DNA of 45,193 nt from Candidatus Saccharimonadota bacterium (GCA_037133995.1 JBAXNA010000002.1:1-45193), one strand, 5' to 3'. Counted from the stretch's first letter, positions 3,344 to 38,031 are shown. Program-made: numbers and translations. Notes: generated by a model from the letters alone, not told the origin.

Positions 3344-3362
3344 AAATAAAGGAGTAAATATT

Positions 3363-11952: not shown

Positions 11953-11955
11953 AAT

Positions 11956-12963
11956 CTAGCGGTTAGATATCACCGAGCGCATATAGTCATCGAGATTTTC
12001 AAGAGCTATACCAGTACCTTTTGCAACGCATAGCAGGGGCTCCTCTGCTACGTAGCTAGGCACTCCAGTGACTTTAGTCATAAGTTTGTCAATATTTCTT
12101 AGCAAGCTACCGCCACCAGTCATAATCATTCCTCTATCAATAATATCGCTAGAAAGTTCGGGCGGAGTCTGCTCAAGCACTGCCTTAACAGCAAGAATAA
12201 TGTCATCTAGTCTTTCACTTATGGCCTCTGTCACGTCTGTTGAGTTGAGCTCGATTGTTTTAGGAAGCCCGGCTACAACGTCTCGACCGCGAATTTGCAT
12301 TTTCATAGGCTTATCAAGAGGTAGGGCTGAGCCAATTTCTTTTTTGATATCTTCGGCGGTACGAGCACCAATGACCAGGCCGTATTTTTTACGAATAAAA
12401 TCTGATATTGCTATATCAATTTTTCCACCTGCCACTCTAACGCTGTGCTGGGCGACAATCCCACCAAGGCTAATAATAGCCACCTCGGTAGTTCCTTCAC
12501 CGATATCAACAATAAGATTACCCGCCGGGGCAGCAATTGGCACGTTAGCTCCAATAGCGGCTGCAACAGGGGCTCTTACTATATATACGCGCTTAGCACC
12601 TGCACTCATAGCCGCATCTATCACAGCTCGCCTCTCTGTTGAGGTGATACCGGTTGGTACGCTTATCATTAGCTCAGGTCTACGCAGCCGAATACGACCT
12701 GCAATATTGTTTATGAGGTATTTGAGTAGTGCCTGAGTAATGCGGTAGTCTGCAATAACACCATCTTTGTAGGGCCGTGAGGCCATAATAATGTCTGGAG
12801 TTCGCCCTAGCATCTCTCTAGCTTCATTACCTATCGCCACAATTCTGTTGTCGTCTACACTCACAGCAACAACTGAAGGCTCATTGGCAACAATGCCCTT
12901 TTTGGGCAAATACACTCTTGTGTTGGCGGTACCGAGATCTATGGCAATTCTTTTTGATAGCAT
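11956..12963 (-). CDS. mreB: Rod-shape-determining actin homologue MreB
   Basis: IDLGTANT, DIGEGTTEVA and MTGGGSLL actin-fold phosphate and adenosine motifs, 335 aa. Confidence 0.95.
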   Translation of the reverse strand: MLSKRIAIDLGTANTRVYLPKKGIVANEPSVVAVSVDDNRIVAIGNEAREMLGRTPDIIMASRPYKDGVIADYRITQALLKYLINNIAGRIRLRRPELMISVPTGITSTERRAVIDAAMSAGAKRVYIVRAPVAAAIGANVPIAAPAGNLIVDIGEGTTEVAIISLGGIVAQHSVRVAGGKIDIAISDFIRKKYGLVIGARTAEDIKKEIGSALPLDKPMKMQIRGRDVVAGLPKTIELNSTDVTEAISERLDDIILAVKAVLEQTPPELSSDIIDRGMIMTGGGSLLRNIDKLMTKVTGVPSYVAEEPLLCVAKGTGIALENLDDYMRSVISNR

Positions 12964-12969
12964 TTTACT

Positions 12970-12978
12970 ATTTTAGCA
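12970..12978 (-). promoter_or_regulatory. Extended -10 (TGCTAAAAT) 6 nt upstream of the mreB ATG; candidate leaderless promoter
   Basis: The reverse complement of 12964..12978 reads TGCTAAAATagtaaa followed by ATG. No SD is present. Confidence 0.4.
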
Positions 12979-13068
12979 AATCTTTAGGCTACATGCCAAA
13001 GCTGCGCTTAACAAATTGACCATATAGAAGTATAATATGAGCAAATAAAGTATAATAAGTATAAGTAT

Positions 13069-14487
13069 ATGATAAAAAAAATCAAAAAAACTAAATCGTT
13101 ATTTCTACCACTCGTCGCCATAATATTTGTTATTGGTGGCACTATTTTGCTTGTGGCCTTTGCTCAAGGCTATACATTTGACCCAGCTAGCCGCAAGATA
13201 AGCACTACCGGACTTGTTCTTATTGATTCTAGTCCAAATGACGCCTTTATAACTCTAAACAATAAGTCCCTGAACAAAAAAACGCCTTATCGGTATGCAG
13301 GCTTGCCAGCTGGAGACATCACAATAGGTCTAAAAAAAGATCAGTATCGCAGCTGGTTTTCTAAGCAGAAAGTCGTTGCCGGTGAGGTAACTTTTGCAAA
13401 TTATGCCTTACTTCTTCCTGAAGTCTTATACCAAGAGTCAGTTGCTGCAGCTGGCGAGTATTCACAAGTATTACAGTCTAGCAGCCTTAACAGAACCCTA
13501 GCGCTATCTAAAGACAGCCTAACTATCTATTCGCTAAATAATGACGGTGAAAATAAGCTTTTATACAGACCGGTTGTGCCTGGCGAAGCCACAAAAGTAG
13601 TAGTTGGGCTAGAGAAACTACAAGTTTCTGCAAATGGCGAGAGAGCTTTATTTACGCAAGTACTGGCAGGTGGCGAGCGCCAGAGTATATTTTTACATAC
13701 CGGTGATGGCAAGTTTGACAATCTAACAGCAGAGTACGGGTTTGTTTTTTCAGACCTTAGATTTAGTCCCGCTGATTCAAATGAGCTATTTTGGTTAGAT
13801 GCTGGAGTACTTAAGAAAATTAAAGTTTCTGAAAAAAGTATATCTTCAAATCTAATGAGCTCTGTGGCCTCGCTTGCTGTGACAGGCGACCGACTTCTTG
13901 TTGTAGCCCAGCCAGACATTAGTCAAGCTAGCCTAGTTGCGACAGCCCAAGTCCAAAAGCTTTCAAGCTATAGCTTTTCTGGCACTGATGAAAAAGAAAT
14001 CGCTAAAGTTACTGCAGACACTGTGGGCTATCAAATGGGCTATATCAAATCTCGCTATAACGACTATGTTTCAGTAATTCATTCGGGTAGCGGGCTGCTT
14101 GAGCTTATACGCGACCCCTACGCAGATGGTGGCCAGTCAAAGACCAGTCGTTATGATGGCGTCAAGCAAATATTTGTTAGCCCAAACTCAAGATTCGTAG
14201 TTTTAGACCAGCTAGACACAATGCACACGCTAGATCTTGAGTATGACCGCCAGTATGATTCACAGGCATCAACCGTAAAATTACAAAGCTTGGCTTGGCT
14301 GGATAGCTACCATTTAGTGCTTTTGCAAGACAGCCAGCTAAGACTTGTTGACTTTGATGGTCAAAATAACCAGCTGCTAACTCCAATTAATGACGTTTCA
14401 TCGGCATCTATTAGTCCTGGCAGTAAAACACTAATGCCACTTAATTCTGCAGGCGAGCTATTTAAACTCTGGCTAGTTAAAAAGTAG
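13069..14487 (+). CDS. PEGA-domain membrane-anchored protein with a probable beta-propeller-like C-terminal region
   Basis: N-terminal TM segment and a PEGA-like segment (LIDSSPNDAFITLNNKSLNKKTPYRYAGLPAGDITIGLKKDQY). Confidence 0.65.
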   Translation: MIKKIKKTKSLFLPLVAIIFVIGGTILLVAFAQGYTFDPASRKISTTGLVLIDSSPNDAFITLNNKSLNKKTPYRYAGLPAGDITIGLKKDQYRSWFSKQKVVAGEVTFANYALLLPEVLYQESVAAAGEYSQVLQSSSLNRTLALSKDSLTIYSLNNDGENKLLYRPVVPGEATKVVVGLEKLQVSANGERALFTQVLAGGERQSIFLHTGDGKFDNLTAEYGFVFSDLRFSPADSNELFWLDAGVLKKIKVSEKSISSNLMSSVASLAVTGDRLLVVAQPDISQASLVATAQVQKLSSYSFSGTDEKEIAKVTADTVGYQMGYIKSRYNDYVSVIHSGSGLLELIRDPYADGGQSKTSRYDGVKQIFVSPNSRFVVLDQLDTMHTLDLEYDRQYDSQASTVKLQSLAWLDSYHLVLLQDSQLRLVDFDGQNNQLLTPINDVSSASISPGSKTLMPLNSAGELFKLWLVKK

Positions 14488-15646
14488 TTGGCATTTTTAT
14501 CTGACTACTTACTTCTGGTAGTCTATTTACGGGGTCATTAGAGGGGTTTTCATCTGAAGGTTTTAGTTCATTTGGTCTGCCAAGCAGTGAATTCACCAAA
14601 GCCTGAAAGCCAATTACTAATTGCTCAAAAATTGATGGTGCCGCACTTGGTAAGACGGTTTTTCCTGAAGGGATATCCCCTGCAGTATTATTTGCGAGCT
14701 TTGTAGCCGCTACGTTAGAAGAAGGTAGTATTTGGCGAGCTTTAACAATAAACCTTCTCCAGCTAGTTCCTGGCGGTGTACAGGTAATAAGTGTTGAGTA
14801 CGGGGTGTCTGTTTGGGCGAGTACTGTAAGGTCGTTAGCTTCTACTATCTTTGTGGACTCTACTTTATAGACGTACTTGCGAGATTGATAGTGTATCGCG
14901 TATTCATCGCCAGGCGCTAGTTTTTCAAGCAGTACAAATACAAATTTATAATTACCTTTTTCCCAAATATCATTACTAGAATGACCAAAAAATACTGCAT
15001 TACCATTGTCTCCAGGATTGGCTGTGCCGGCGTAATGCACCACCCCATCCTGCAAGGCCCGCAAGACATCTTGCTCTTTTAAAGAATCAGTAAATACTAG
15101 TGGTGCAGAAACATTGATCTTTGGTATTATTATTAGATTTTCAGTACCCACGACCTCTGCTTGGGCGGCAATAGGATTTGGCTCTACTGGTTCAGGAATT
15201 ACAGCTGACTGATTGGCTGGTTTGGGAGTGATTCGGTATATAACCTGACTATAGATAAACTGAAAATTGAATAGTAATATAAAAAAACAGAAACTAACAA
15301 ACGCAAATCTAAAAGTTTTGAAATGTTTAGTTTTACGAAGCTTAGTAAGCTTTGCTTTGGCATTAGCCTGCTTATCTGGCGGCAAAGTCTGACTGTGACC
15401 AGCAGTCTTTGGTGAAAGATTGATCTTAGCATGTACGTGGTGAGCTTTTGGTGGCTGAAGATGCACTGGCTGAGCACTGGCTTCGGCTGGCTTAGTCACC
15501 TCTTTCGCGTGGTGAGAAGCAGTTTGGCTATTGGGGTTGTGAAAACGTGGTATCGAATCTAGACTGAAGTTGCCAGCAGAGTTTGGCTGGTGACTATGAT
15601 TGTTTTGAGGTATTTGATATGATGAATCAGGTTTTTTGGGGGGCAT
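14477..15646 (-). CDS. Sortase (transpeptidase) with a long His/Pro-rich N-terminal extension
   Basis: Catalytic TLITCTP motif, an upstream His (FFGHSS), a downstream Arg (WRRFIVKA) and a TM anchor (FAFVSFCFFILLFNF). Confidence 0.85.
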   Translation of the reverse strand: MPPKKPDSSYQIPQNNHSHQPNSAGNFSLDSIPRFHNPNSQTASHHAKEVTKPAEASAQPVHLQPPKAHHVHAKINLSPKTAGHSQTLPPDKQANAKAKLTKLRKTKHFKTFRFAFVSFCFFILLFNFQFIYSQVIYRITPKPANQSAVIPEPVEPNPIAAQAEVVGTENLIIIPKINVSAPLVFTDSLKEQDVLRALQDGVVHYAGTANPGDNGNAVFFGHSSNDIWEKGNYKFVFVLLEKLAPGDEYAIHYQSRKYVYKVESTKIVEANDLTVLAQTDTPYSTLITCTPPGTSWRRFIVKARQILPSSNVAATKLANNTAGDIPSGKTVLPSAAPSIFEQLVIGFQALVNSLLGRPNELKPSDENPSNDPVNRLPEVSSQIKMPTTF

Positions 15647-15723: not shown

Positions 15724-15808
15724 GCCGCTGTGGTGGAATTGGTAGACACGCACGACTCAAAATCGTGTGCCTTACAGCATGTCGGTTCGATTCCGACCAG
15801 CGGCACCA
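15724..15808 (+). tRNA. tRNA-Leu (anticodon CAA), long variable arm, CCA encoded
   Basis: The acceptor stem GCCGCTG pairs with CAGCGGC. The anticodon stem-loop is CACGA-CTCAAAA-TCGTG and the T-arm is GTCGG-TTCGATT-CCGAC. The 3' end is ACCA. Confidence 0.9.
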
Positions 15809-24180: not shown

Positions 24181-24553
24181 GCTATCTTAGCAGATGACCG
24201 TACAGTGTTACAAGACCATTATTGTGCAAGATCATTACCTTGTGGCCAAAACCGTAGCTGTCCCAGCCGTTAAATATTATCTGCCCAGCATCTGCTGCAC
24301 GTACTGGTGGGCTACTGGGGTTAGCGATATCTATGCCATTATGAAATGAGTAGCCACAGACTGTACAAGTAGCTGGCCCGTAGTTTTGAGTCATTATGCC
24401 GTTTGTTACCGAGCGATAGTCAAAAGGCGAACCATTTGGATTAATAAAACTACCTCCATTCAGCACAGAAAAATGCAGGTGAGTTCCGGTTGAGTTGCCG
24501 GTGCTGCCCATGTAGCCAATAATATCACCTTTGTTGACTGAGCCTAGGCTGAC
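24181..24553. repeat. Copy 1 of a 373-bp near-identical direct repeat (M23 module)
   Basis: Aligns base-for-base with 25172..25544 (offset 991) with about 4 mismatches by eye. Confidence 0.9.
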
Positions 24554-25162
24554 GAGACCACCAGAAGTATTCTGGGCGATCATGCTTGTAGCTAAGACGT
24601 TACTGCTCAGGCCAGAATCAACAGGGGGAACAACTAGCGGATTGTCTGGGTTGGTCTGGCCTGCTGAGTCTTGTGGCAAAGTCACTGTACTTTGATTGCT
24701 CAAATCTGTAGTATTAGCTGGCAGACTTGGGCCTGAATCTAATGTTTGCGGATAGTCTGAGGGTGTACTAGAGTATTCTTGCTGTGGCCCCACAGCAGCA
24801 GTCAGCTGGAGTGGTTGATTAGGTTGTTTTGGCAGCTGGGCGAGCTGCGATGCAGCTGTGTCTGTAGCTGGCTGGGGCTGTGGGTAAATTGGCGGCGTAG
24901 GCTTAGCAGTATTGGGGTCGTAGACTGGCTGAGTCTCTGAGTAAACAGTGCTTGCAGGTGTTTCTGCATAGGGCTGTGGTGCAGCTGTAGCTTGAGGCCG
25001 AGCTACAATATTCGGGTAAGCGTAGGATAAGGCAAGACATATCACAGAAAATACCACTGCGGTAGCGGCTACTTGCCTTATCCGGTTTCTAGAACTAGCG
25101 GGCGCTGGAGGTGTCTGCGCTTCGGGTGAGGATGATTTTTCGTGATCTTGTATAGGCTGCAT
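24182..25162 (-). CDS. Membrane-anchored M23 (LytM-type) peptidase with a Pro/Gln-rich linker; catalytic motifs in permuted order
   Basis: TM anchor (AATAVVFSVICLAL). HxH (THLHF) comes before HxxxD (HNGID), and the protein ends at LYGHLLR. Confidence 0.8.
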   Translation of the reverse strand: MQPIQDHEKSSSPEAQTPPAPASSRNRIRQVAATAVVFSVICLALSYAYPNIVARPQATAAPQPYAETPASTVYSETQPVYDPNTAKPTPPIYPQPQPATDTAASQLAQLPKQPNQPLQLTAAVGPQQEYSSTPSDYPQTLDSGPSLPANTTDLSNQSTVTLPQDSAGQTNPDNPLVVPPVDSGLSSNVLATSMIAQNTSGGLVSLGSVNKGDIIGYMGSTGNSTGTHLHFSVLNGGSFINPNGSPFDYRSVTNGIMTQNYGPATCTVCGYSFHNGIDIANPSSPPVRAADAGQIIFNGWDSYGFGHKVMILHNNGLVTLYGHLLR

Positions 25163-29134: not shown

Positions 29135-30241
29135 ATGTCAGAAAACAACCTTAGTTTAAAAAATACTATCAGCCAGCTTGCCAGCCTCTTAGAGTCTGTA
29201 GATTTGGCTATTTCAAGTCTAGATCTTGCCCACGATGAAAAAAAGCTACTAGCCGACGAAGACCAAATGTCTAGCCCAGACTTTTGGCTTAATTCACAAA
29301 AAGCCGAAGCTCACAGTAAACAAACAGCAGAGCTTAGGCGCTACGTTTCCAGCTGGCAAGAATTGCGCTCAGACCTACAGACTACATTAGAGCTAGCCCA
29401 GCTAGAAACTGGCGAAGAAGCATCAAGCCAATTTGCTGGGCTACTAAAAGACTTGCAGGCTCGCTCAAATGAGGCTCTTGTAGCAGTCAGGCTCTCAGGC
29501 GAGTTTGATAGAAGTAACGCAATTCTGCAGATATCTGCAGGTGTTGGCGGCACAGATGCTCAAGACTGGGCTCAAATGCTACAAGAAATGTATATTAAAT
29601 ACGCCAACACACACGGCCTGAGTGTAGACATTTTAGACACTTCATATGGTGAAGAAGCCGGAATCAAGTCAACCACTCTAAGAATCTCTGGGCCATTTGC
29701 CTATGGCAAACTAAAAGCCGAAAAAGGCACTCACCGTCTAGTAAGACTTTCGCCATTTAATAGCGACAATCTAAGACAAACTTCTTTTGCACTTGTCGAC
29801 ACCGTGCCAGAAATAGCTCAGGCTGAAGTCAAGCTAGACGAAAAAGACTTGCGAATAGATGTTTATAGAGCTGGCGGTAATGGCGGCCAAAGCGTCAACA
29901 CTACAGATAGCGCAGTGCGAATCACTCATTTACCCACCGGCACAACTGTAGCTATCCAAAACGAGCGCTCACAGCTCAAAAACAAAGCTGTAGCTATGTC
30001 GGTATTGTTCGCCCGCCTCAGCGAGCTGGCTAGAGAACAAAAGCTCAAAGACGTAGCTGAGCTCAGAGGTAGCGTTAGGTCTGCAGACTGGGGTTCGCAA
30101 ATAAGAAGCTATGTTCTCCACCCCTACACCAAAGTCAAAGATCACCGCACCGGCTATGAGACCAGTGATACTAGTGCTGTATTAGGCGGTGAAATTGAGC
30201 CTTTCATACAGGCTTATCTAGATCAAAATATAGTCAAGTAA
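29135..30241 (+). CDS. prfB: Peptide chain release factor 2, encoded in one uninterrupted frame
   Basis: SPF tripeptide (RLSPFNS) and GGQ motif (GGNGGQSVN). The 368-aa ORF is continuous from the ATG. Confidence 0.93.
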   Translation: MSENNLSLKNTISQLASLLESVDLAISSLDLAHDEKKLLADEDQMSSPDFWLNSQKAEAHSKQTAELRRYVSSWQELRSDLQTTLELAQLETGEEASSQFAGLLKDLQARSNEALVAVRLSGEFDRSNAILQISAGVGGTDAQDWAQMLQEMYIKYANTHGLSVDILDTSYGEEAGIKSTTLRISGPFAYGKLKAEKGTHRLVRLSPFNSDNLRQTSFALVDTVPEIAQAEVKLDEKDLRIDVYRAGGNGGQSVNTTDSAVRITHLPTGTTVAIQNERSQLKNKAVAMSVLFARLSELAREQKLKDVAELRGSVRSADWGSQIRSYVLHPYTKVKDHRTGYETSDTSAVLGGEIEPFIQAYLDQNIVK

Positions 30242-30348: not shown

Positions 30349-31602
30349 TTACTTCTTACCTACAGCATGCTTGGCATCACTAATAGATTTTTTGCTTTTT
30401 TGATAAGCATACACACTTGCACTAATTCCTGTCATACCTAGTATTCCAGCAAGACCAGATTCAATACCTGTTTGAGGTAGTGAGCTAGTTGGAGTTACAG
30501 GAGTGATAGGTGTTGGAGGAGTTGGACCTTTTGGGGTCACAATCTGAGCATCATCACAGCTTAGGTATGGTACTTCGGTAGAACGTACACAGCCTATGTT
30601 TGTAAGGGTGTCAACAGCAGTGTCTTTGACCGTTACTTGGTACAAGACGTAGCCATTTACTCCACCGGCGTAGTCACCTACGTTTTGGCCACCAGCTGAA
30701 AACAAGCTGTTGTCAGATAGAGCCATACCGTTAGGGTCGGTGCCGTTATATAGTTTTACAGTGCCAGGAATCAGTTTTAGCTGTTCTGGAAGCTTATCTG
30801 TAAGAGCCATATTGGTCTGGGTAGTTGTGCCTGTGTTTTTAAACGAAAGTCTAAAATACAGTCTTTCACCTGGCTTAGCTTCTAGTTTTTCAACAAAAGC
30901 TTGGCTTGGGCGGGCTACAGTCTTTTCAATAGTGATAGGGGCTGCTTCTACTTTGACCTTAACAATAACGTACATGTCGTTTTCAAAACATCCAGGTACG
31001 TTGCCGTCTTGTGCGTTTTCGCCAATATTGGCGCCAGCTCCAACAATACTGTCAGATACCGGTATCCCAACGCCAGTGTGAGTGTCAGCGTAAGCTGAAC
31101 CAGCTACATAGCTCAAACGATACGGAGTACCGTCTGCACTGGTGAAGTTGGTAGTGTCAAAGACACTACCAGGTTTGGCGTTGTCAGCCGAAATTTGGCT
31201 AACCGCGTTCATTTGTGTGCCAACTCCGTTAGGCAGAGTTATTTTAACTTTTGTGTTTTTGGCGATACCCACATAGTTGTGAGCGGCGTCATTTAGGGCT
31301 GAGTCAGCGTTATTGTGTATGTAAGTACGCAATTTAATTTCATCGCCAACTTTTACTTTGATAGGGTCTTGAAAACCACCTGGTGTGGTGTTCCACTGCT
31401 TACCATCAAAGAACTGTTGTTCGTTACCGTCTGGAACATTGGTAAACGAGTTGAAGGTTACATAGTCGAAGCCTGTTGTATTTGGGCCTGTCCAGGCTTT
31501 TAGCGGACGGTCAGGGTACCATCCAGCAACGGTCATAACAGGTACTAGCACTGCAATAGCAGTAGCCAAGACACCTAGACCAATTTTACTAATTAGTTTC
31601 AT
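30349..31602 (-). CDS. Sortase-anchored surface protein (LPQTG sorting signal, DUF11/CARDB-like repeat region)
   Basis: The C-terminus has LPQTG, a hydrophobic stretch (IESGLAGILGMTGISASVYAY) and a basic tail. An N-terminal signal or TM segment is present. The ATG at 31602 follows aaaaaggaga; the longer ORF reaching 31704 is rejected. Confidence 0.85.
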   Translation of the reverse strand: MKLISKIGLGVLATAIAVLVPVMTVAGWYPDRPLKAWTGPNTTGFDYVTFNSFTNVPDGNEQQFFDGKQWNTTPGGFQDPIKVKVGDEIKLRTYIHNNADSALNDAAHNYVGIAKNTKVKITLPNGVGTQMNAVSQISADNAKPGSVFDTTNFTSADGTPYRLSYVAGSAYADTHTGVGIPVSDSIVGAGANIGENAQDGNVPGCFENDMYVIVKVKVEAAPITIEKTVARPSQAFVEKLEAKPGERLYFRLSFKNTGTTTQTNMALTDKLPEQLKLIPGTVKLYNGTDPNGMALSDNSLFSAGGQNVGDYAGGVNGYVLYQVTVKDTAVDTLTNIGCVRSTEVPYLSCDDAQIVTPKGPTPPTPITPVTPTSSLPQTGIESGLAGILGMTGISASVYAYQKSKKSISDAKHAVGKK

Positions 31603-31994
31603 ATAAATATTCTCCTTTTTGAGATATTTTAGGTTTAATGTGATATTTAAAGTCAGAGATAAGTAGTATGTATTGGGGGGCCGCGAATACAGCTCGCAAG
31701 ACATGCTTTATTATCTAGACATTTGGGGTCTTTTGGAATTGTGCAAATATGATAATATCAAGGGGCATTTACAGTATTCGAACGAAACTCCGAATCAGCA
31801 CTTATAATAGCATATGATTATTCTTATGTCAATACTTTTGCATAACATTTATGTATCGAGAGATGGGTTCAAAAACAGGCAATATAGTAAGGATTATAGT
31901 ATATAGGCATATTTAGCTTTATAACTCTTATGTATATATGTCAAACAGCTCACTTTGTAGCTCTATACTTTTTATCTGGTGGCTCTTCTATTAA

Positions 31995-32041
31995 TAAAAA
32001 AAGACCCCCGTCTCTAGAGCTAAGTGCTCTAGAGACGGGGG
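31995..32041 (-). terminator. Intrinsic terminator after the 32048..33004 gene
   Basis: Perfect 16-bp stem (32005..32020 pairs with 32026..32041), a 5-nt loop, and a minus-strand U-run (31995..32004). Confidence 0.8.
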
Positions 32042-32047
32042 TAAATG

Positions 32048-33004
32048 TTAGCCAGGTGCCGTTTGCGGTACAGTCACTGGTATGGTCTGAACCGGTCTGG
32101 GCTCTGGCAAAGGTGCTGGCGGCGGTAGCGTCACAGGAGGTGGCGCAACAGTCGCGGTAGGCTCCACTTTATCAGGTGGCGGAGGCGTTGGGTTTACAGG
32201 CCTAGGCCCGCAATCTCCCAGCGCACAGGCTGCAGGGTCGTTGCCGATTGAACGACTCGGATCCTTGCAGTTATACCCTGGTGGGCAGCCTCCCGTTGTT
32301 GTGGGCGGTGCCTTTGGGGTAGTTACCACTGGCGGTGAGATTGGCCTTGGCTTGCTTGGTGTGCTTGGTGCTGGCTGGTCTAGCGTGGGAACCCCCACAA
32401 AACTAGTAGCAACCGGCTGAAATCCGCAGTCCAGCTTGTAATTAAGCTGAGTGCCAGCGCAGTCGAAGCGCAAAACACTGTAGCTGGGCTTTTCAGGGCT
32501 AGCCTGAAAAATACCAGGAATGTCAGAGGAGCTCGCGCCCTTCCGCATCCACAATGTTTGGTAATTACCAGACATTGTCTGCAGGCTTGCACTGCAGCTA
32601 CTCTCTCGAGTCTCAAGACTCATGACAGTGAGGCGCCAGGCCTCTTTATTGTCAATAAGTGTTTGGGTTTTAGCCAAACGCTCTTGAGGGCTGGTATAAA
32701 CACCAGCCTGGTACTCTTGGTGAGCCACGGCCAAGGCCGGGTCACTACAGCGGCGATTATGCAGCTCGCTTTTTTGAGCTTCAACATCAGCACTAGCTGA
32801 GGCCGGGCCAAAAAAGTTTGCAGCAACATCATAGGCAAAAAAGTGTACACTGTCAGCGCAATTGGCACTGGCATTCACTACCAGGGTCGTGCTTGGTGGC
32901 ACGGCTGTAATGGGGTTCGCCAGTAAGACGAACCCAAACAATAGTAGCACTACAGTTGAGGCAGCTGCCCCAACGAGCGCCCGCTTCTTATTTTCATTAA
33001 CCAT
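32048..33004 (-). CDS. GC-rich ORFan: signal-anchored secreted protein with a Cys-containing domain and a Pro-rich tail
   Basis: SD aaggggag, an N-terminal TM segment (VVLLLFGFVLLA), 10 Cys residues and a PPPP-rich C-terminus. GC content is visibly higher than the flanks. Confidence 0.7.
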   Translation of the reverse strand: MVNENKKRALVGAAASTVVLLLFGFVLLANPITAVPPSTTLVVNASANCADSVHFFAYDVAANFFGPASASADVEAQKSELHNRRCSDPALAVAHQEYQAGVYTSPQERLAKTQTLIDNKEAWRLTVMSLETRESSCSASLQTMSGNYQTLWMRKGASSSDIPGIFQASPEKPSYSVLRFDCAGTQLNYKLDCGFQPVATSFVGVPTLDQPAPSTPSKPRPISPPVVTTPKAPPTTTGGCPPGYNCKDPSRSIGNDPAACALGDCGPRPVNPTPPPPDKVEPTATVAPPPVTLPPPAPLPEPRPVQTIPVTVPQTAPG

Positions 33005-33104
33005 TAGGTGCTCCCCTTTCAGGGCCTCTGCCTTTCGAATTTATCTACCTTCTCACACAGGCTCATATGAGAAGATGTCAAAACTTGAATTGTAAATGTA
33101 TTGG

Positions 33105-33140
33105 TTTTGGTTGGGGAGATTAATCTCTCCCCAACCAAAA
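33105..33140. other. 15-bp stem-loop downstream of the 33159..33890 gene
   Basis: 33105..33119 pairs with 33126..33140 (ttttggttggggaga / tctccccaaccaaaa). There is no clear U-tract. Confidence 0.5.
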
Positions 33141-33158
33141 CAACTGGCTCCCGCGAGC

Positions 33159-33890
33159 TTACTGGCTCTGGCCAAATCTTTCGGCCCACCAGGCCTCAGA
33201 CGTGGTCTGGGGTGGCGGCGTAGGTGCACCAACAGAAGTTGGCACTAGCACCTGTGTGCGGGTTGGCTGTTGAGCAACAACCACAGCTGCAGGCTGCACA
33301 ACCTCTACCACTTGCACAACCTCAGTTGGCTCTTGAGCCGGTGCTGGGGCTGTAGTGGTGCTGGTAGGCCTACTAGCTGGCTTGCGCTTGCCAAGAAGAC
33401 AAACACAGGCCGCAAATGTAAATGCCATTGCAACAAAAGTATAGGCCACAACGTGGTAGTTCATAATGCTGCGAGCAGCACTAGAAATTACACCGTTGTT
33501 GCCACCTTCCACTGCTAAGAACGGATCCCAGCGGGCTGAGAACACCAGAATGTGAAAACAAACTGCTGAAATCAAACCTACAACAGCCGTGATGACTGTT
33601 GAGCCCAACCAGTCAATCTCGTGATTGAGGGCTTCGAGCCCCGTCACACGCTCATCAAGACCAGCCTGGTTGTCACCAAGCTGAGTGATTCGGCCTTGCT
33701 GGACAGCCAACTGTGTACCTTGAGCTGCTACAACTGTAGCAGTGTCGTCAACGTCGGTTCTGAGGCCGACAATACTTGAGTCGTGGTTAGCAAGCCTTGT
33801 GTCTACTACATCGTTCACTTCTGCTTGTGCAGCTAGCATCTCAGATAGCTGTCTCTTGGCCTTGTCTAGGTTGACTTGTGCTGAGGGCAT
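33159..33890 (-). CDS. GC-rich ORFan: N-terminal coiled coil, two TM helices and a Pro/Thr-rich tail
   Basis: SD aagggggg. TM segments VITAVVGLISAVCFHILVF and VVAYTFVAMAFTFAACVCLL. Confidence 0.7.
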   Translation of the reverse strand: MPSAQVNLDKAKRQLSEMLAAQAEVNDVVDTRLANHDSSIVGLRTDVDDTATVVAAQGTQLAVQQGRITQLGDNQAGLDERVTGLEALNHEIDWLGSTVITAVVGLISAVCFHILVFSARWDPFLAVEGGNNGVISSAARSIMNYHVVAYTFVAMAFTFAACVCLLGKRKPASRPTSTTTAPAPAQEPTEVVQVVEVVQPAAVVVAQQPTRTQVLVPTSVGAPTPPPQTTSEAWWAERFGQSQ

Positions 33891-34005
33891 TACGCCCCCC
33901 TTTCTGTGTTGTTTCGGATATTAGGTACTGGTCACTGGTGAAATAAGTCTTTTACGAATCTCACCAGAGTGCAAAACCTGTGGTTGAAATATGGGTTTAA
34001 ATTGT

Positions 34006-34042
34006 GTCACCAGAGAGTCTCGCAATGAGACCCTCTGGTGAC
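34006..34042. terminator. 16-bp stem-loop (one mismatch) just after the 34060..35178 gene
   Basis: gtcaccagagagtctc-gcaat-gagaccctctggtgac. Confidence 0.5.
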
Positions 34043-34059
34043 ATAGAACTACAAAAAGG

Positions 34060-35178
34060 CTAGGCCAGGCTTTCTATCCGCATAATAACAGATCGGGCCC
34101 GATCAAGAAACTTCTGGGTGAATTCGTCAAAATCTACTGTGCCTTCTGGCTCGGTATCATTCGGTGGAATTTCCTCTGGAGTATCTTTGAGCTGTGGTGC
34201 CTCTGGAGCCTCAGGCTCCTCGGCCTTAGGGCCGCAGACAATGTACGGCACTGGAGGCTGTTCATCTTTGGCTTCCACTTTGGTTTCAGCTTTGGCGCTA
34301 GCCTCAACTTCAACTTCAGTTTCTTGCTGTGAATTAGACTCAGTCTCAGCCTCTTTCTTGATGCGTGCAATGGCTTCGGCAATATCAGCCTCAGACTTGG
34401 CTTCTGCTTCAGCCTTGGCTTTAGCATTTTCCATTCGCCTGATTCTATCAATTTGATCGGCCATGTTGGGCACATCTTGATGCTCAGCATCAGCTACTGG
34501 AGCTTCTGCTACAGACTGCTGCTTCTGCTTAGCCTTAGCTTCAGCGTCTGCCTTAGCATTGGCTTTAGCCTTGGCTTCAGCATCTGTCTTGGCTTTCGCT
34601 TCAGCATTAGCCTTGACGATAGCATCAAATTCACAGGCCTCTTGAAAAAGTCGCTCGGCCTCAAACGCGTCTAGCAACTTTAGCCCATTGGCTTGGTTAT
34701 TAAACATCTTGAACTTGATGCCAAACAGCGAAAGTAAGTCCTTCACCTTGATGCCCAAGCGGGCTGCAATGGTAGAGGCTGGCTCAACAACTGAAGTGTT
34801 GCTGTCGTCAGCTTCTTGCTCTGCCCAAACATCATTGCTTGGTGGTGCCGGCTCGCCCTCAAAAAACTCTTCATTGAGCAGGGTCTTTGTGCCAGGCTCT
34901 GCCTTGTCATCTTCGGCTTTCGCTTCAGCTTTTGCAGCCTTTGCAGAAACTCCAAGGACTTTCCTGACCCTAGTCATAGAGACAAGATCGCTGCCCTTCT
35001 TGGCCTTACCATCTGCCTTAAGCACCTGCTTGAGAGTTACCTCAAGCTCTTTTGCTGCTTCAGATGCAGTTGAACGCTTCCGATTTTTTCGGGCGGGTTT
35101 CTCTGGTACATCAGTGCTTGAGAAATCAATCTCAAGCTCACCAATATCTTTCAATGACTTAACAACTTTTGCGGCCAT
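34060..35178 (-). CDS. Highly charged ORFan with (A/E)AKAK repeats (TolA-like helical low complexity)
   Basis: Strong SD aaggagg before the ATG at 35178. Shadow ORFs occur in several other frames because of the low-complexity sequence. Confidence 0.65.
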   Translation of the reverse strand: MAAKVVKSLKDIGELEIDFSSTDVPEKPARKNRKRSTASEAAKELEVTLKQVLKADGKAKKGSDLVSMTRVRKVLGVSAKAAKAEAKAEDDKAEPGTKTLLNEEFFEGEPAPPSNDVWAEQEADDSNTSVVEPASTIAARLGIKVKDLLSLFGIKFKMFNNQANGLKLLDAFEAERLFQEACEFDAIVKANAEAKAKTDAEAKAKANAKADAEAKAKQKQQSVAEAPVADAEHQDVPNMADQIDRIRRMENAKAKAEAEAKSEADIAEAIARIKKEAETESNSQQETEVEVEASAKAETKVEAKDEQPPVPYIVCGPKAEEPEAPEAPQLKDTPEEIPPNDTEPEGTVDFDEFTQKFLDRARSVIMRIESLA

Positions 35179-35258
35179 TTAGGCCTCCTTCTTTTTGTAG
35201 TAGTGTGAAGATACAACATGAGCTTGAGGTGTTTTAAAATCTCAAGCCGTCGCAAAAG

Positions 35259-35287
35259 AGCATACTACAACTTTGGGCAAATGTCAA
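35259..35287 (-). promoter_or_regulatory. Sigma70-type promoter of the 34060..35178 gene
   Basis: On the minus strand: TTGACA (35287..35282), a 17-nt spacer, then TATGCT (35264..35259). Confidence 0.5.
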
Positions 35288-35359
35288 TACTTTTAAACGC
35301 TTATACTTGGGCTCTCAACCCTACAGTAATGATAAAAAAAGCGATCTAAAACCAAAATA

Positions 35360-35403: not shown

Positions 35404-35742
35404 CTACTCTACAGATAGAGACTCAAGTTTTTTTGCAGCCACAACATCGTCTATGGCTTTTGAATTGTTAGAGATTTCTTCAATAGTTTCGGTCTCTATT
35501 TTGGTCTTGAAAGCTTCATAGTCGTCGAATTTAGAGATAATATACGGCTCTATTTTATCATCTTTGCCGCCGTCGATAAGTACTTCTAGCTCTGCTAGGT
35601 CATCTTCACTAAGAGTTTCAGCGACTTTTAGCATTATTCTGGTACTCACAGAGTTAGCAAGCTTTTGCAAGAGCTCATCTTGGTCGCTTGGGGGTAAGTT
35701 TTCTATTTGTAGTTTTTTGACAATGTCATCTCGTGTAAGCAT
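35404..35742 (-). CDS. Small acidic hypothetical protein (112 aa)
   Basis: SD aaggaa, starting 18 bp after the stop of the 35761..37944 gene. Probably co-transcribed with it. Confidence 0.6.
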   Translation of the reverse strand: MLTRDDIVKKLQIENLPPSDQDELLQKLANSVSTRIMLKVAETLSEDDLAELEVLIDGGKDDKIEPYIISKFDDYEAFKTKIETETIEEISNNSKAIDDVVAAKKLESLSVE

Positions 35743-35760: not shown

Positions 35761-37944
35761 TTATAATGGTGGCAGTATAGGTGTGGCGTTAATTCCATCT
35801 AGTGCAGCGTTAATACCCGCGTTAGTTGTGTATACTATTCCGCCTGGGCTTGTCATAGATTCTATTGCGCCATCACCGCCGCTCAAGCCGTTACCAACAA
35901 CTTTCCAGCCCATAGAAGTGGCCTTATTACCCAGTTCCATAATTTTTGGCGTGGCATCGCCACGACCCACTAGGCGTGCGAAATGTGTCCATGGGTAGCT
36001 ATTGTCAGTTCCAGTAAACGGTATCTCAGTTGGTGGTACATCAACATGTGGTGGTACATCAACATGTGGTGGTACATCAACATGTGGTGGTTCATCAACA
36101 TGTATCGGAGGCTTCGGTGGCTCTGGATGATCAACCAAAGCATGGGCTACAAAAGGTGCTGCAGCTAGGGCTGCACCTGCCACAAGCCCACCACGCTTGC
36201 TTCTACGTCTAGTGGTTGAGCCTTTTATGGCAGACTCAGTGTAGTCTTCTATGCTGGTATCTGCGCCGTGCTTGGCCAGGTCTCTGTTGACCTTCCACTC
36301 ACCACCGGCTCTTACGGCGTTGTAGCCACCAATTCCTCTTAGGGCTGTCTTGCCCGCTATAGCGATACCAATAAGAGGTGGGTTGGCAGTAAGAGTACCA
36401 ATTATGCCTAGGCCAATCATGCCTGCACTGGCAATAAGTCTAGCTTTAGGGTGTTTTTTGAGCCAGTTAGACATTTTGGCTAGTCTTGGGTGGTTTTTCT
36501 CACGCTCAGCAAGCATTGTAGCGTCTACACGAGTACGTACTTCAATAAGTTTTTCGGCTTTTTCTCTTTCAAATTTTTCATGTAGGGCGACTTTTTCATT
36601 AGCTATTAAGTCTTTATAGTTATTCATAAAAGCAATGTAGTCTTGCTGTTCTTGGATATCTGCTTCAAGCATTGGAGGTATTTGGTCTGCTGGTAGGCTA
36701 CGCATAGCAATAAGGGTTGCTAGCTTGTTGTTTGCCTGTGCAATGTATTGGTCTGCTGTTGCACTCCACTGGTCTAGCTCCCGCTCTCTATGCGCCATTA
36801 CTTCTGCCAATGCTTCAGACCACTGCTCGAATCTTTCGTGCAGCTCTTGCTGTTGTAATCTAAGCTGGGTTTCTTCTGCTCCACCAGAAAGCATCTTTTC
36901 TCGGCTGACTCTCGCTACAGCAAAGGCTTCAATAGAAAAGTCTAAATCTCGGGTGCTCATCTCAAAAGCAATTTCGGCAGGGTTTCTAGGCTCACCGTCT
37001 TGTGGTGGTTCTAAGACTTCTGGCGGGCCTGGAGGTGTAGGTGTTTCATCATCTATTCTGTAGGGTTCTTGCCCCATGCCACCAGGAAGGTCTGGGTCTT
37101 CTGGTAAAGCAGGTCTGTAGCCAGGGCCTGGTTCTGGTGTAGCAGGCGGATTTACAGTGGTAGGCTCAACCGGGCCAGGCTCAACAGGAACTGGCTCAAC
37201 CGGGCCAGGCCCAACAGGAGTTGGCTCAACCGGCGGCAAGTCTTGTGGGCCGTGTACAACATTAGATGGTGTGTTATCGCCGCCCTCTTGGCTTTGTGTC
37301 CCACCGTTTAGATGAATGTTAATCTCGGAGCTATTTGTATTAGTACTAGTAGGGCCACCAACAGATACAGTTGGGCTTGAAGTAGAAGTAGAGCTAGATG
37401 TAGATGTAGTAGAAGAGTTGCTAGTAGTACCGGCCTTAGCTGTTTTAGTGGTAGCATCAACATCATCTTTTTCTTCGGTATCGTTGGTGGTTTCTACCAA
37501 TGGCTGTGGTGGTAGATTGTCTCGAATATCACTAGCATTGGCAGCAATAACGTCCATATTGTCTTTAGAGATAAATTGACCGCCAGATCTTTTGCCAGAA
37601 ACATTAAGTTGCTTGGGTTCGTGACCACGGCCGTTTTTGTCTATATCTACTAAGTCTTCTATGCCTTGAGGGTCTTTATCTGGAGTGGTGGAGTCTTGCT
37701 TAACAAGCTCAGCAATACGTGCGTCTTTGGTAAAACTCTCGGCCGCAGCAACTACAGCAGCCGCTTTTAGATCTGCTACCTCGCGTGTGAGCTCAGCAAT
37801 GGTTGCTTTGTCACCCGACTCAACAGCTTCTTTTGATTTACCGCCCTCTATTATGTCTTTGAGTTCTTTATTTAGTGAAGATGCTTCTGGTGGAGGTGGT
37901 GGTGGGCCTTGTACTTCTGGAGATGCTGTATTTACTGTTGTCAT
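35761..37944 (-). CDS. Large ORFan membrane protein with Ser/Thr-rich, Pro-rich, coiled-coil, TM, PPHVDV-repeat and C-terminal globular regions
   Basis: The ATG at 37944 is preceded by aaggaaaact. The longer ORF reaching 38031 would begin inside the predicted -35 box. TM segments include LIASAGMIGLGIIGTL and GGLVAGAALAAAPFVAHALV. Confidence 0.7.
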   Translation of the reverse strand: MTTVNTASPEVQGPPPPPPEASSLNKELKDIIEGGKSKEAVESGDKATIAELTREVADLKAAAVVAAAESFTKDARIAELVKQDSTTPDKDPQGIEDLVDIDKNGRGHEPKQLNVSGKRSGGQFISKDNMDVIAANASDIRDNLPPQPLVETTNDTEEKDDVDATTKTAKAGTTSNSSTTSTSSSTSTSSPTVSVGGPTSTNTNSSEINIHLNGGTQSQEGGDNTPSNVVHGPQDLPPVEPTPVGPGPVEPVPVEPGPVEPTTVNPPATPEPGPGYRPALPEDPDLPGGMGQEPYRIDDETPTPPGPPEVLEPPQDGEPRNPAEIAFEMSTRDLDFSIEAFAVARVSREKMLSGGAEETQLRLQQQELHERFEQWSEALAEVMAHRERELDQWSATADQYIAQANNKLATLIAMRSLPADQIPPMLEADIQEQQDYIAFMNNYKDLIANEKVALHEKFEREKAEKLIEVRTRVDATMLAEREKNHPRLAKMSNWLKKHPKARLIASAGMIGLGIIGTLTANPPLIGIAIAGKTALRGIGGYNAVRAGGEWKVNRDLAKHGADTSIEDYTESAIKGSTTRRRSKRGGLVAGAALAAAPFVAHALVDHPEPPKPPIHVDEPPHVDVPPHVDVPPHVDVPPTEIPFTGTDNSYPWTHFARLVGRGDATPKIMELGNKATSMGWKVVGNGLSGGDGAIESMTSPGGIVYTTNAGINAALDGINATPILPPL
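36031..36102. repeat. 18-bp in-frame tandem repeat, 4 copies (tggtggtacatcaacatg)
   Basis: Three identical copies plus one with a single substitution, encoding (PPHVDV)x4. Confidence 0.9.
37163..37234. repeat. 30-bp in-frame tandem repeat, about 2.4 copies
   Basis: ggctcaaccgggccaggcYcaacaggaRYt, encoding PVEPGPVEP-type units. Confidence 0.75.
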
Positions 37945-38001
37945 AGTTTTCCTTATGTGGCGTGAACTTACACTAATTAGATATTTAAGCTTATGCTTAG
38001 T

Positions 38002-38031
38002 AGTATAAATGAGAAAGTGGTATAGCGTCAA
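38002..38031 (-). promoter_or_regulatory. Candidate promoter of the 35761..37944 gene
   Basis: On the minus strand: TTGACG (38031..38026), an 18-nt spacer, then TATACT (38007..38002). Confidence 0.4.

Follow-up and report, generated by a model that had tools for sequence, protein, structure and literature searches.

Three adjacent genes in a 45,193-nt stretch of Candidatus Saccharimonadota DNA (GCA_037133995.1 JBAXNA010000002.1:1-45193; the window, meaning the whole stretch analysed) are markedly richer in GC than their surroundings, which raises the question of where they came from and what keeps them so. The original prediction answered that they form a GC-rich ORFan block, inserted between prfB and secA and acquired horizontally as a candidate envelope module. 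Its three minus-strand open reading frames were placed exactly, namely g1 (32048-33004, 318 aa), g2 (33159-33890, 243 aa) and g3 (34060-35178, 372 aa). The supposition that the genome belongs to an epibiont-type CPR organism was likewise supported, homologues being named Candidatus Saccharibacteria.

The block carries predicted expression signals, all on the minus strand. A strong Shine-Dalgarno sequence precedes each gene, as had been proposed: GGAGG at 35184-35188 for g3, GGGGGG at 33895-33900 for g2 and GGGGAG at 33011-33016 for g1. Hairpins follow all three genes, again in line with expectation. The one 3' of g1 belongs to an intrinsic terminator (31995-32042), with a perfect 17-bp stem at 32004-32042 and then a T-run; that of g3 (34005-34043) has 17 bp at 94% complementarity and no T-run, and an additional perfect 16-bp stem lies 3' of g2 at 33104-33141. 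Judged by these signals, g1, g2 and g3 are separate expression units. Promoter-like sites were found upstream of g3 (TTGACA-17-TATGCT, 35259-35294) and of the DUF11 gene only. The former contains the 14-nt element AAAAGTATTGACAT, an exact second copy of which lies upstream of the DUF11 gene (31826-31839); this element is the block's sole border repeat. The motif AAAA[CG]TATTGACA/TTGCA also occurs in spacers at other loci. Integrase and transposase genes are absent from the window, as first noted; its only tRNA lies at 15724-15808, and the block borders carry neither a tRNA nor target-site repeats.

Directly downstream of g1 stands its conserved partner gene (30349-31704, minus strand; true start probably M35, near 31602), whose product is a surface protein with DUF11 repeats and the sortase signal LPQTG. 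This protein scores 46 bits for the DUF11 repeat and 16.3 bits for TIGR01167 (cut-off 15.9), and it shows the C-terminal LPXTG, hydrophobic segment and basic tail of a sortase-anchored protein; a sortase gene is present at 14477-15646 (domain match E 2e-23). Upstream of the block, the conserved neighbours in the secA context are a DUF5663 protein gene (35404-35742) and the gene for a 756-aa Pro-rich membrane protein, here called BIG (35761-38031), both on the minus strand.

None of the three products contains a recognisable motif, as stated at the outset: no threshold-passing match was obtained in Pfam, NCBIfam, PHROGs or PADLOC, and no PDB family was matched. For g2, Pfam gave sub-threshold matches only (E 0.07 and 0.25), and PHROGs a weak match to a coiled coil (E 0.0015). 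The further claim that all three products are envelope-directed holds for g1 and g2, which have transmembrane (TM) segments and are predicted to be membrane or envelope proteins, but was not borne out for g3, which has neither a TM segment nor a signal peptide. The description of g1 as a signal-anchored, Cys-rich protein with a Pro-rich tail proved apt: it has a single N-terminal TM segment (8-38), 9 Cys, 14% Pro and 11% Ala, and its predicted N-in topology would face the protein outward. Alignment reveals an approximately 160-aa conserved extracytoplasmic alpha/beta domain in which the motif KLDCGFQPV is invariant and Cys residues are conserved; C.LGDCGPRPV forms a further Cys motif, and the Pro-rich tail ends in TAPG. 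The AF2 model places core residues ~46-205 at pLDDT >90, a fold without a structural match in PDB or BFVD, and Pfam matches numbered zero among 16 g1-family members. In g2, the coiled coil and two TM helices were correctly recognised (TM 92-121 and 145-168). The N-terminal coiled coil, predicted to be cytoplasmic, weakly resembles the P22 gp26 needle (E 1.4e-4) and VAMP2; the TM hairpin encloses a conserved 28-aa outer loop, ARWDP..EGG..AARSIMNYH, and is followed by KRK and a Pro/Ala/Val-rich tail.

The third protein, g3, is an acidic Ala/Glu/Lys-repeat protein that is fast-evolving, with repeat indels, and has homologues in the nearest relatives only. Its N-terminal part contains a small HTH-like module (residues ~31-80) and its C-terminus a conserved amphipathic helix; it also has a PYIVCGP motif, and AF2 places helices at 171-218 and 239-285 at low pLDDT (~45-74). 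Its designation as TolA-like was not supported. Like TolA, g3 has a long repeat region rich in Ala, Lys and Glu, which in g3 may be helical; however, the resemblance is one of composition only, as g3 lacks an N-terminal TM anchor (maximum 19-residue hydropathy 1.12), a TolA/TonB-type C-terminal domain (Pfam, NCBIfam; a PDB profile search gave nothing relevant) and tolQRB-pal neighbours, carries a net charge of -19 and is probably cytoplasmic. Gram-positive sortase-dependent loci offer a parallel in the LPQTG-anchored DUF11 neighbour, the sortase gene in the window and the Pro-rich, wall-spanning type of tail in g1, but no LPXTG signal occurs in g1, g2 or g3, and none of them is a pilin, a sortase or a member of a known accessory family.

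The compositional distinctness of the block was borne out. Gene GC is 0.548 in g1, 0.530 in g2 and 0.490 in g3, against a window mean of 0.433; the earlier hand counts of 58-67% (g1) and about 60% (g2) overshoot these gene means, although local 150-nt windows within the block do peak at 0.59-0.63. GC3 amounts to 0.495, 0.471 and 0.445, respectively, compared with 0.31-0.43 in other window genes. When GC3 was conditioned on amino-acid composition and on the codon use of flanking genes, the z-scores were +5.0 for g1, +3.0 for g2 and +2.7 for g3, with all 34 other window genes falling between -2.8 and +2.6. By tetranucleotide frequency, the block is the lowest-scoring 3.3-kb segment of the window (r 0.57-0.60 vs 0.88 +/- 0.07). 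The DUF5663 and BIG genes lie outside this island (z -0.3 and -2.6), and GC3 of the DUF11 gene is normal, at or below expectation. Coding-strand GC skew is approximately +0.1 in g3, approximately +0.03 in g2 and negative in g1, which is C-rich on the coding strand.

With 285 clusters at 50% identity, the g1 family is not that of an ORFan, and this part of the original prediction was dropped. In approximately 25 Saccharibacteria species, g1 and g2 adjoin a DUF11/LPXTG gene, most loci being ordered secA-BIG-DUF5663-block-DUF11-prfB, and the arrangement secA-BIG-DUF5663-[2-4 GC-rich genes]-g1-DUF11-prfB-ftsEX recurs down a range of g1 identity from 69% to ~32%. Nearly all related loci have the block in this place, with DUF5663/secA on one side and DUF11/prfB on the other. 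Each locus carries a single copy of g1, and the DUF11 gene lies directly downstream of it in every locus examined. A second context of the g2-g1-DUF11 trio (HisKA_7TM...PK-PGK-TIM) retains high GC3, at 0.94 in g2 and 0.75 in g1 vs ~0.43; thus, the anomaly belongs to the genes rather than to their place on the chromosome. Distances in g1 follow housekeeping distances (rho 0.71) at approximately 2.5 times their amino-acid magnitude, and the g1 and housekeeping trees contain the same terminal clades. On this comparative evidence, the block is an ancient, vertically inherited, syntenic module specific to Saccharibacteria.

Across these relatives, block GC3 reaches 0.75-0.94 vs 0.3-0.45 in the flanks, and the median z is close to +10. 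Of 25 loci, 22 have a conditioned z above 3.5 for g1 (median +10.6), and 21 do so for the gene in the g2 position (median +10.4); relative to most of the clade, the excess in this window is weak. Its strength differs widely even between sister clades (g1 GC3 0.45 vs 0.76 at equal flank GC). Strong loci follow the profile GC3 > GC1 > GC2, and the block is likewise elevated in GC1, GC2 and GARP amino acids (0.29-0.41 vs 0.24-0.26 for GARP). The edges are sharp, the outer spacers being AT-rich (0.29-0.39), and the inner spacers, each made up of a hairpin rich in GC and a promoter rich in AT, show moderately raised GC. GC3 of the ribosomal protein L27 gene, the sole highly expressed reference gene, is low (0.20-0.31); the block's bias is therefore not the translationally preferred codon set of the genome.

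Substitution polarity was assessed in the one cleanly polarisable trio of loci (L017, L020 | L026). Third positions of the block there recorded 54 W>S and 55 S>W substitutions, with GC3 and GC3* both at 0.74, compared with 431 and 376 in the flanks (GC3 0.43, GC3* 0.46). Per site, the third-position rates were 0.342 for W>S and 0.122 for S>W in the block, against 0.234 and 0.271 in the flanks, and all sites gave the same picture as third positions. In this trio, the block is at substitution equilibrium and is not ameliorating; the window's own lineage supplied only 10 vs 14 substitutions, too few sites for an equilibrium test. A parallel is found in the Borrelia vls locus, where G+C of ~49% vs ~28.6% is kept high across species despite sequence divergence, leading its authors to infer strong pressure to maintain composition (PMC11499132). 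Block GC is likewise held far above that of the genome across species. Unlike vls, which lies on a telomeric plasmid and has a coding-strand GC skew of ~0.52 (PMC11499132), the block shows neither strong coding-strand GC skew nor G-runs, lacks a silent-cassette array (no such repeats in the window or the loci) and consists of three different single-copy genes that are chromosomal and syntenic.

Further detail came from 4-fold sites and from predicted mRNA structure. At 4-fold sites of the window's subclade, coding-strand G rises from 0.10 to 0.20 and C goes from 0.24 to 0.21; in W, L001, L002, L021 and L022, the shifts are +0.10-0.14 for G and -0.03 to +0.02 for C, and in L023 and L024 they are roughly symmetric. 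G3 is up in every lineage, and in the strongest loci C3 and G3 are both up and T3 has collapsed to 0.13-0.19. Folding was evaluated as the MFE of the coding sequence against synonymous permutations, performed on the whole gene or locally. For g1, the whole-gene z-scores in five loci were -7.7, -7.9, -4.2, -2.6 and -4.7, and local permutation gave -6.4 and -6.9, the values for the window's own g1 being -7.7 and -6.4; control genes averaged approximately -1 to -2 under whole-gene permutation. Under local permutation in the window, g2 (-3.4) and g3 (-3.8) did not differ from the two controls treated in this way, prfB (-3.4) and DUF11 (-3.1). When UTR and terminator were included, the g2 transcript reached -8.9, vs -1.5 for ftsE and 0.0 for ftsX. 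Excess mRNA folding is robust for g1 only.

How such a composition arose can be explained in several ways, one being that GC is raised by the Pro, Ala and Gly content of low-complexity proteins alone, with no effect at the nucleotide level. The Pro and Ala content of g1 and its GC2 of 0.55 fit this idea, but it is refuted and has practically no chance of being correct: amino acids predict a GC3 of 0.35-0.37 for g1-g3, whereas about 0.43-0.49 was observed, the deviation persists after conditioning, and the excess runs evenly along g1, whose folded domain carries it equally. Moreover, the Pro/Ala-rich genes at 6853-8676, 24182-25162 and 35761-38031 combine raised GC with normal or low GC3 (low in BIG and in the gene for a 607-aa Pro-rich protein), and the block's excess is thus not an amino-acid artefact. 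Recent or repeated acquisition from a high-GC donor, such as an actinobacterial host, is largely refuted as well and must be considered very improbable. The Actinobacteria hosts of Saccharibacteria are GC-rich, and the GC3 > GC1 > GC2 profile of strong loci resembles that of a 60-70% GC organism. Cultivated Saccharibacteria do grow on Actinobacteria hosts (PMC10633639). The block also looks like a genomic island in being a discrete gene run with atypical GC, GC3 and tetranucleotides, unannotated surface-type products and AT-rich spacer borders. However, because it is conserved in place across the clade, the reading of the block as inserted and horizontally acquired fails. Unlike an island, it keeps its locus and gene order in approximately 25 species, its g1 clades mirror housekeeping clades and match the species phylogeny at clade level, mobility genes and border tRNA or repeats are absent, and the trio is at equilibrium instead of ameliorating. 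No donor homologue emerged either: the homologue matches that name a taxon are all Saccharibacteria or Patescibacteria, with none from other named genomes (four titles read 'bacterium' only), and none were found in the phage and plasmid collections IMG/VR, INPHARED and PLSDB. Finally, a high-GC actinobacterial donor is expected to give C3 at least as high as G3, whereas the window's shift is G-only.

The main rival to RNA-level selection, which is favoured here, is a local recombination hot spot with GC-biased gene conversion (gBGC), whereby fast-evolving genes would often be exchanged among naturally competent Saccharibacteria and biased repair would fix W>S changes at all tract sites. We judge it unlikely. 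Natural competence is documented in Saccharibacteria (PMC10633639), and in bacteria GC3 is higher in genes that recombine (PMC4450053). As in the gBGC genes of Lassalle et al., 2015 (PMC4450053), GC3 in the block is up more than GC1 and GC2 via non-optimal GC-ending codons, spacers are slightly raised and a W>S fixation bias is found, with S>W changes in the block at below half the flank rate. The raised GC1, GC2 and GARP, the repeat indels in g3 and the fast evolution of g1 at the protein level also agree with gBGC, although nucleotide third positions are not faster (~0.24 substitutions per site in total vs ~0.28 in the flanks of the trio); the sole hint of an elevated recombination rate is a 90-nt piece of g1 found in frame inside g3 of the close relative L035, a g1-to-g3 transfer. 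However, gBGC is strand-symmetric, whereas at 4-fold sites the window's subclade gains only G on the coding strand, and gBGC leaves unexplained why g1 folds beyond its synonymous permutations. In the block, the effect is confined to 2-4 genes with very sharp boundaries, beyond which GC3 of the adjacent DUF11 surface-protein gene is at or below expectation. Effects in the earlier gBGC study are reportedly many times smaller than the block's, with GC3 differences said to be much smaller than the 0.3-0.5 gap here. Strand asymmetry could instead reflect transcription-associated mutation in extremely highly transcribed genes, which would enrich the coding strand in G and T and raise GC3. The coding-strand-specific G3 gain in L003, L004, L008 and L010 (G>C and T>A at 4-fold sites) points this way, as do the strong Shine-Dalgarno sequence and 3' hairpin of each gene, the promoter-like sites being those of g3 and the DUF11 gene only. 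This explanation is nevertheless improbable, as the joint rise of C3 and G3 and the collapse of T3 in the strongest loci are unlike known transcription skew; to our knowledge, no transcription effect approaches a GC3 of 0.8-0.94.

We prefer, at even chances of being right, the view that the block is an ancient, vertically inherited, envelope-associated module whose GC-richness is actively maintained, preferably by selection on the nucleic acid itself. Its products may cooperate at the envelope: g1 would be the outward-facing, signal-anchored component, with an alpha/beta domain and a Pro-rich wall-spanning tail; g2 a coiled-coil component that its TM hairpin anchors in the membrane; g3 a component of the cytoplasm, strongly charged and evolving fast; and the sortase-anchored DUF11 surface protein the constant neighbour of g1. 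In this view, the GC-richness is no remnant of transfer but a base-composition regime intrinsic to the genes and actively upheld across most of the clade. The selection would most plausibly favour mRNAs of envelope proteins that are rich in GC and strongly folded, and would thereby yield long-lived (or slowly translated) messages. Conservation, vertical descent, a GC3 excess over what amino acids predict, the equilibrium of substitutions and the excess folding of g1 are demonstrated; the role in an envelope complex and the selective cause at the RNA level are inferred. Raised GC1, GC2 and GARP fit gBGC or mutation bias at least as well as RNA-level selection, a functional requirement that is constant sits uneasily with the variation in strength between sister clades, and the match of g2 and g3 to prfB and DUF11 under local permutation confines robust folding to g1.

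For the class Saccharimonadia, a more tentative suggestion, which we consider possible but less than probable, is that g2 and g1, usually with one or two upstream genes, are held at their own GC-rich equilibrium, with GC3 up to 0.94 in genomes of 0.3-0.45, by a mechanism particular to these genes and poorly covered by any current category. If so, these bacteria may require hyper-structured, hyper-stable mRNAs for envelope proteins relevant to their epibiotic life cycle, or a dedicated recombination or conversion process may act on this surface locus.

The three minus-strand ORFs of the GC-rich block, designated g1 (32048-33004, 318 aa), g2 (33159-33890, 243 aa), and g3 (34060-35178, 372 aa), were recovered at exactly the coordinates of the original prediction. 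Their GC contents of 0.548, 0.530, and 0.490, respectively, compare with 0.433 for the window, and their GC3 values of 0.495, 0.471, and 0.445 with 0.31-0.43 in the other window genes. An expected GC3 was computed for each gene from its amino-acid content and from codon usage in the remaining genes; the conditioned observed and expected values were 0.487 and 0.354 for g1, 0.455 and 0.364 for g2, and 0.433 and 0.365 for g3. The corresponding z-scores were +5.0, +3.0, and +2.7, against a range of -2.8 to +2.6 in the remaining 34 window genes. The proposal that the block is compositionally distinct thus holds with its Pro/Ala-rich composition accounted for, and an amino-acid artefact is excluded. 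As an internal control, the Pro-rich neighbours of 607, 326, and 756 aa have raised GC and normal or low GC3. By tetranucleotide frequencies the block is the most deviant 3.3 kb in the window (r of 0.57-0.60 vs 0.88 ± 0.07); after Markov normalisation its deviation is mild only. Two further GC-raised window segments, encoding a zinc-ribbon/DUF4367 protein (6853-8676, GC 0.475) and another M23 peptidase whose N-terminus is Pro-rich (24182-25162, GC 0.493), owe this to amino-acid composition alone (GC2 about 0.51, GC3 normal).

All three genes carry their own strong SD (GGAGG for g3, GGGGGG for g2, and GGGGAG for g1), and each is followed by a perfect or near-perfect hairpin with a stem of 16-17 bp: at 32004-32042 (with a T-run) for g1, 33104-33141 for g2, and 34005-34043 for g3, as had been claimed. 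A promoter-like site, TTGACA-17-TATGCT, lies upstream of g3. The 14-nt element AAAAGTATTGACAT (gene strand), present in exact copies at 31826-31839 and 35281-35294, makes up the -35 region of two promoter-like sites, one preceding g3 and one preceding the gene for an LPXTG surface protein with DUF11 domains (30349-31704, hereafter DUF11). The same AAAA[CG]TATTGACA/TTGCA element also occurs in spacers of the related loci L016, L017, and L024 and may be the strong-promoter consensus of the clade. A structured non-coding RNA inside the block was rejected, since Rfam gave only chance matches to the hairpins.

The description of these genes as ORFans and as a horizontal insertion did not survive comparison with related genomes. 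Homologues exist for g1, g2, and g3, and those carrying names are Candidatus Saccharibacteria. A profile of the g1 domain retrieved 285 clusters (50% identity) of unchanged architecture, 143 of them at E<=1e-10; the clusters of distant g1 relatives carried no organism names. Six contigs obtained via homologues of g1 or g2 (g1 identity 35-69%) share one gene order: secA-(BIG)-(DUF5663)-g3 position-g2-g1-DUF11/LPXTG-prfB-ftsE-ftsX-CHAP-(M23)-S41-pyrG, where BIG is the 756-aa Pro-rich membrane protein gene (35761-38031 in the window). A scan with the g1 alignment over one genome per GTDB species returned 25 loci, most of them in this arrangement; their titles name Saccharibacteria or Patescibacteria MAGs where they name a taxon, and four say only "bacterium". 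In a second subclade, g2-g1-DUF11 lies between a HisKA_7TM kinase and PK-PGK-TIM. The full second context, seen in L014, L015, L029, L030, and L033, comprises response regulators, the HisKA_7TM kinase, (DUF11), g2-g1-DUF11, and PK-PGK-TIM-UvrD; the neighbouring two-component system is a possible regulator of the module. The DUF11 gene is directly downstream of g1 in every locus. An iterated HMM found g2 in 16 of 26 loci, the others having a protein of the same architecture at its position, and g3 homology fades past the nearest relatives, with an acidic, cytoplasmic-type protein always at the g3 position. The prfB gene is one continuous ORF in the window (29135-30241), as in the other loci except L007 (CAILAD010000032.1), where it is split into ORFs of 179 and 167 aa, which could reflect an assembly error or a frameshift.

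By the refutation test originally proposed, this synteny, shared by most of the loci across the clade, refutes horizontal insertion. Distances of g1 correlate with those of housekeeping genes (Spearman 0.71), g1 evolving about 2.5 times faster, and neighbour-joining trees built from the g1 domain and from prfB+ftsE+ftsX+S41+secA agree in their terminal clades, their deep branch order being unresolved. These matching clades, together with the Saccharibacteria and Patescibacteria names of the homologues, speak against a high-GC donor. Such a donor is expected to show C3 at least equal to G3, and the G-only shift at the 4-fold sites of the window's subclade does not fit. The window contains no integrase or transposase, as originally noted. 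A phage, plasmid, or prophage origin was likewise rejected: the block proteins had no match in INPHARED or PLSDB, and none in IMG/VR except one weak coiled-coil match.

The compositional excess proved to be a property of the clade, of which the window represents the weak end. In the related loci, block genes have a GC3 of 0.44-0.94 vs 0.21-0.45 in flanking genes. The conditioned z exceeds 3.5 in 22 of 25 loci for g1 (median +10.6) and in 21 of 25 for the gene at the g2 position (median +10.4), and the difference between g1 and flank GC3 has a median of +0.25 and a maximum of +0.44. The excess is missing only from the most distant g1 relatives, one at 26% identity and one a 580-aa variant; the latter, a g1-like protein in L032, lies below expectation (z -7.8). 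The excess is even along g1, folded domain included, and stops sharply at the outer spacers (GC 0.29-0.39), while the inner spacers consist of a GC-rich hairpin and an AT-rich promoter. Both bordering genes tend to a GC3 under their amino-acid-conditioned expectation (window, L002, L007, L008, and L016), with z of -2.6 to -4 for BIG and of -0.8 in the window to -5 elsewhere for DUF11, which sharpens the contrast at the block edges. A positional effect, such as one of replication origin or terminus, was excluded, because the gene pair retains its GC3 in the second genomic context (in L033, 0.94 for g2 and 0.75 for g1 vs about 0.43).

Substitution counts indicate that this composition persists at equilibrium. 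The sole trio close enough for polarisation, L017 and L020 with L026, yielded 54 AT->GC (W>S) and 55 GC->AT (S>W) changes at block third positions, where GC3 is 0.74 and the equilibrium value is also 0.74. The flank third positions yielded 431 W>S and 376 S>W changes at a GC3 of 0.43 (equilibrium 0.46). The per-site S>W rate in the block is less than half of the flank rate, and all sites together give the same picture; more divergent trios were unreliable, with an implausible flank W>S excess or a block of <260 sites. The high GC of the block is thus maintained rather than decaying. Between the sister clades L021/L022 and L023/L024, both with a flank GC of 0.41-0.42, g1 GC3 differs (0.45-0.48 vs 0.76); the few polarisable block sites of L021 and L022 show 14 S>W vs 2 W>S changes, which hints that the GC bias can be lost in some lineages.

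As the cause, we favour selection on the nucleic acid for strongly folded, stable, GC-rich mRNAs. Each block gene would form a monocistronic mRNA with a strong SD and a 3' hairpin, and selection would favour those block mRNAs that are GC-rich, strongly folded, and stable. Indeed, the g1 coding sequence folds far more strongly than its synonymous-codon permutations in five loci (z of -7.7, -7.9, -4.2, -2.6, and -4.7), with controls averaging about -1 to -2; under permutation within 25-codon blocks, g1 gave -6.4 and -6.9, and the two controls run gave -3.4 (prfB) and -3.1 (DUF11). For g2 the folding z varies from -1.7 to -5.7, and g3 cannot be told apart from controls. Preference for translationally optimal codons is unlikely, because the L27 gene has a GC3 of 0.20-0.31, a weak test with one ribosomal gene only.

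GC-biased gene conversion (gBGC) maintaining GC at a recombination-prone locus is a serious rival. GC1, GC2, and GARP residues are likewise raised in the block, as is its W>S rate, as gBGC or a general GC pressure would have it. In the close relative L035 (Logan ERR14822391), moreover, a 90-nt g1 segment (5420-5509) lies in frame inside g3, with 90% identity to window 32792-32703 (L035 secA: 93% nucleotide identity). It encodes DVEAQKSELH.RRCSD.ALAVAHQEYQAG, replaces part of the Ala/Lys/Glu repeat region of g3, and has junctions at short similar sequences; it stems either from real ectopic conversion inside the block or from a chimeric assembly. Against gBGC, and for action on the coding strand or the RNA, stands the base asymmetry at 4-fold sites. 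G3 is up in all lineages (0.10 to 0.20-0.40), whereas C3 is up in the strong lineages only; in the window, G rises from 0.10 to 0.20 while C goes from 0.24 to 0.21. At the codon level, ATA drops from 38% to 7% and AAA from 63% to 34%. A strand-symmetric process, whether gBGC or symmetric mutation bias, would not yield such a G-only shift on the coding strand. Transcription-associated asymmetric mutation is a minor rival to selection on the mRNA.

The three proteins belong to no recognisable family, as had been noted: Pfam, NCBIfam, PHROGs, and PADLOC gave no significant or threshold-passing match. The predicted signal-anchored, Cys-rich character of g1 was borne out by a single N-terminal TM segment (residues 8-38), nine Cys, and 14% Pro, and the KKR ahead of the segment implies an N-in topology. 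In its alignment, the motif KLDCGFQPV is invariant, a further motif reads C.LGDCGPRPV, and the Pro-rich tail terminates in TAPG. AlphaFold2, run with the g1 alignment, predicts a confident core at residues ~46-205 (pLDDT mostly >90), in which four helices lie on a six-stranded sheet, with disorder outside it. In Foldseek searches of PDB and BFVD this model had no match (best E 0.41 and 0.095, TM <0.15), and the g1 profile matched no PDB sequence. In g2, the expected coiled coil and two TM helices were found: the N-terminal coiled coil precedes a TM hairpin (92-121 and 145-168) around a conserved 28-aa loop, followed by KRK and then a tail rich in Pro, Ala, and Val; the positive-inside rule would place both termini in the cytoplasm. 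PDB profile searches for the three proteins returned nothing beyond a coiled-coil resemblance of g2, to the P22 gp26 needle (E 1.4e-4) and VAMP2. The likeness of g3 to TolA is one of composition only: it is Ala/Glu/Lys-rich (net charge -19), with no predicted TM segment or signal peptide and no family match. Its AEAKAK-type repeats differ by indels among variants; it also has a PYIVCGP motif that is conserved and an amphipathic helix at the C-terminus. The g3 model (pLDDT 52) is too poor to rely on; its structure matches, none of them significant, lean to HTH domains, so that an HTH-like small N-terminal module is only a lead.

Judging from this anatomy and the conserved adjacency only, the module likely spans the membrane. 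The g3 protein and the g2 coiled coil would lie on the cytoplasmic side and the g2 hairpin in the membrane, with g1 facing outward and its Pro-rich tail spanning the wall; no enzymatic motif is evident in the three proteins. The g1 gene adjoins the sortase-anchored DUF11 surface-protein gene. The window's sortase gene (14477-15646) belongs to an upstream envelope-biogenesis cluster at 8749-15646 that also encodes a WecG/TagA glycosyltransferase, a GT4 glycosyltransferase, a Wzy_C O-antigen-ligase-like protein, MreB, and a PEGA-domain protein; tRNA-Leu(CAA) is located at 15724-15808. On the minus strand, the C-terminal part of BIG (about 36018-36100) contains tandem PPHVDV hexapeptide repeats, which account for odd repetitive plus-strand ORFs at 35983-36212. 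Elsewhere in the window, the ribonucleotide reductase small-subunit ORF (3216-4394) has a TTG start inside the large-subunit gene, with a 128-nt overlap; its Pfam match starts only at residue 75, which probably places the true start further downstream.

Among general processes, the GC3 elevation of recombining bacterial genes (PMC4450053) comes closest. The closest analogue is the Borrelia vls locus, likewise a surface-protein locus whose GC stays high across species within an AT-rich genome (about 49% vs about 28.6%; PMC11499132). Unlike vls, the block is without the defining silent cassettes and without strong GC skew. In the study of recombining bacterial genes, GC3 effects were reportedly far smaller than that of the block. 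Our literature searches found nothing on the block locus, or on GC-rich genes, codon usage, or anomalous GC3 in Saccharibacteria, and no paper on DUF5663; a Saccharibacteria Tn-seq paper does not mention the locus under the terms searched.

The block is a compositional island that is vertically inherited and at equilibrium, a clade-wide phenomenon reached from a mild instance in the window. Such islands in bacteria are routinely taken as horizontal transfer; here is one that is orthologous, syntenic, and at substitution equilibrium across a class of CPR bacteria, so the default reading would be systematically wrong for these genes in every Saccharibacteria genome. The locus is a clean natural system for telling selection on nucleic-acid composition or structure from bacterial gBGC: GC3 of the same genes spans 0.45-0.94 among sister lineages whose flanks are identical. 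Some Saccharibacteria are genetically tractable through natural transformation (PMC10633639). Three to four proteins of the module, clade-wide and unannotated, lie beside a sortase-anchored surface protein, and one of them has a domain that is predicted with confidence yet unmatched in PDB; they are candidate proteins of the little-understood envelope/host interface of Saccharibacteria.
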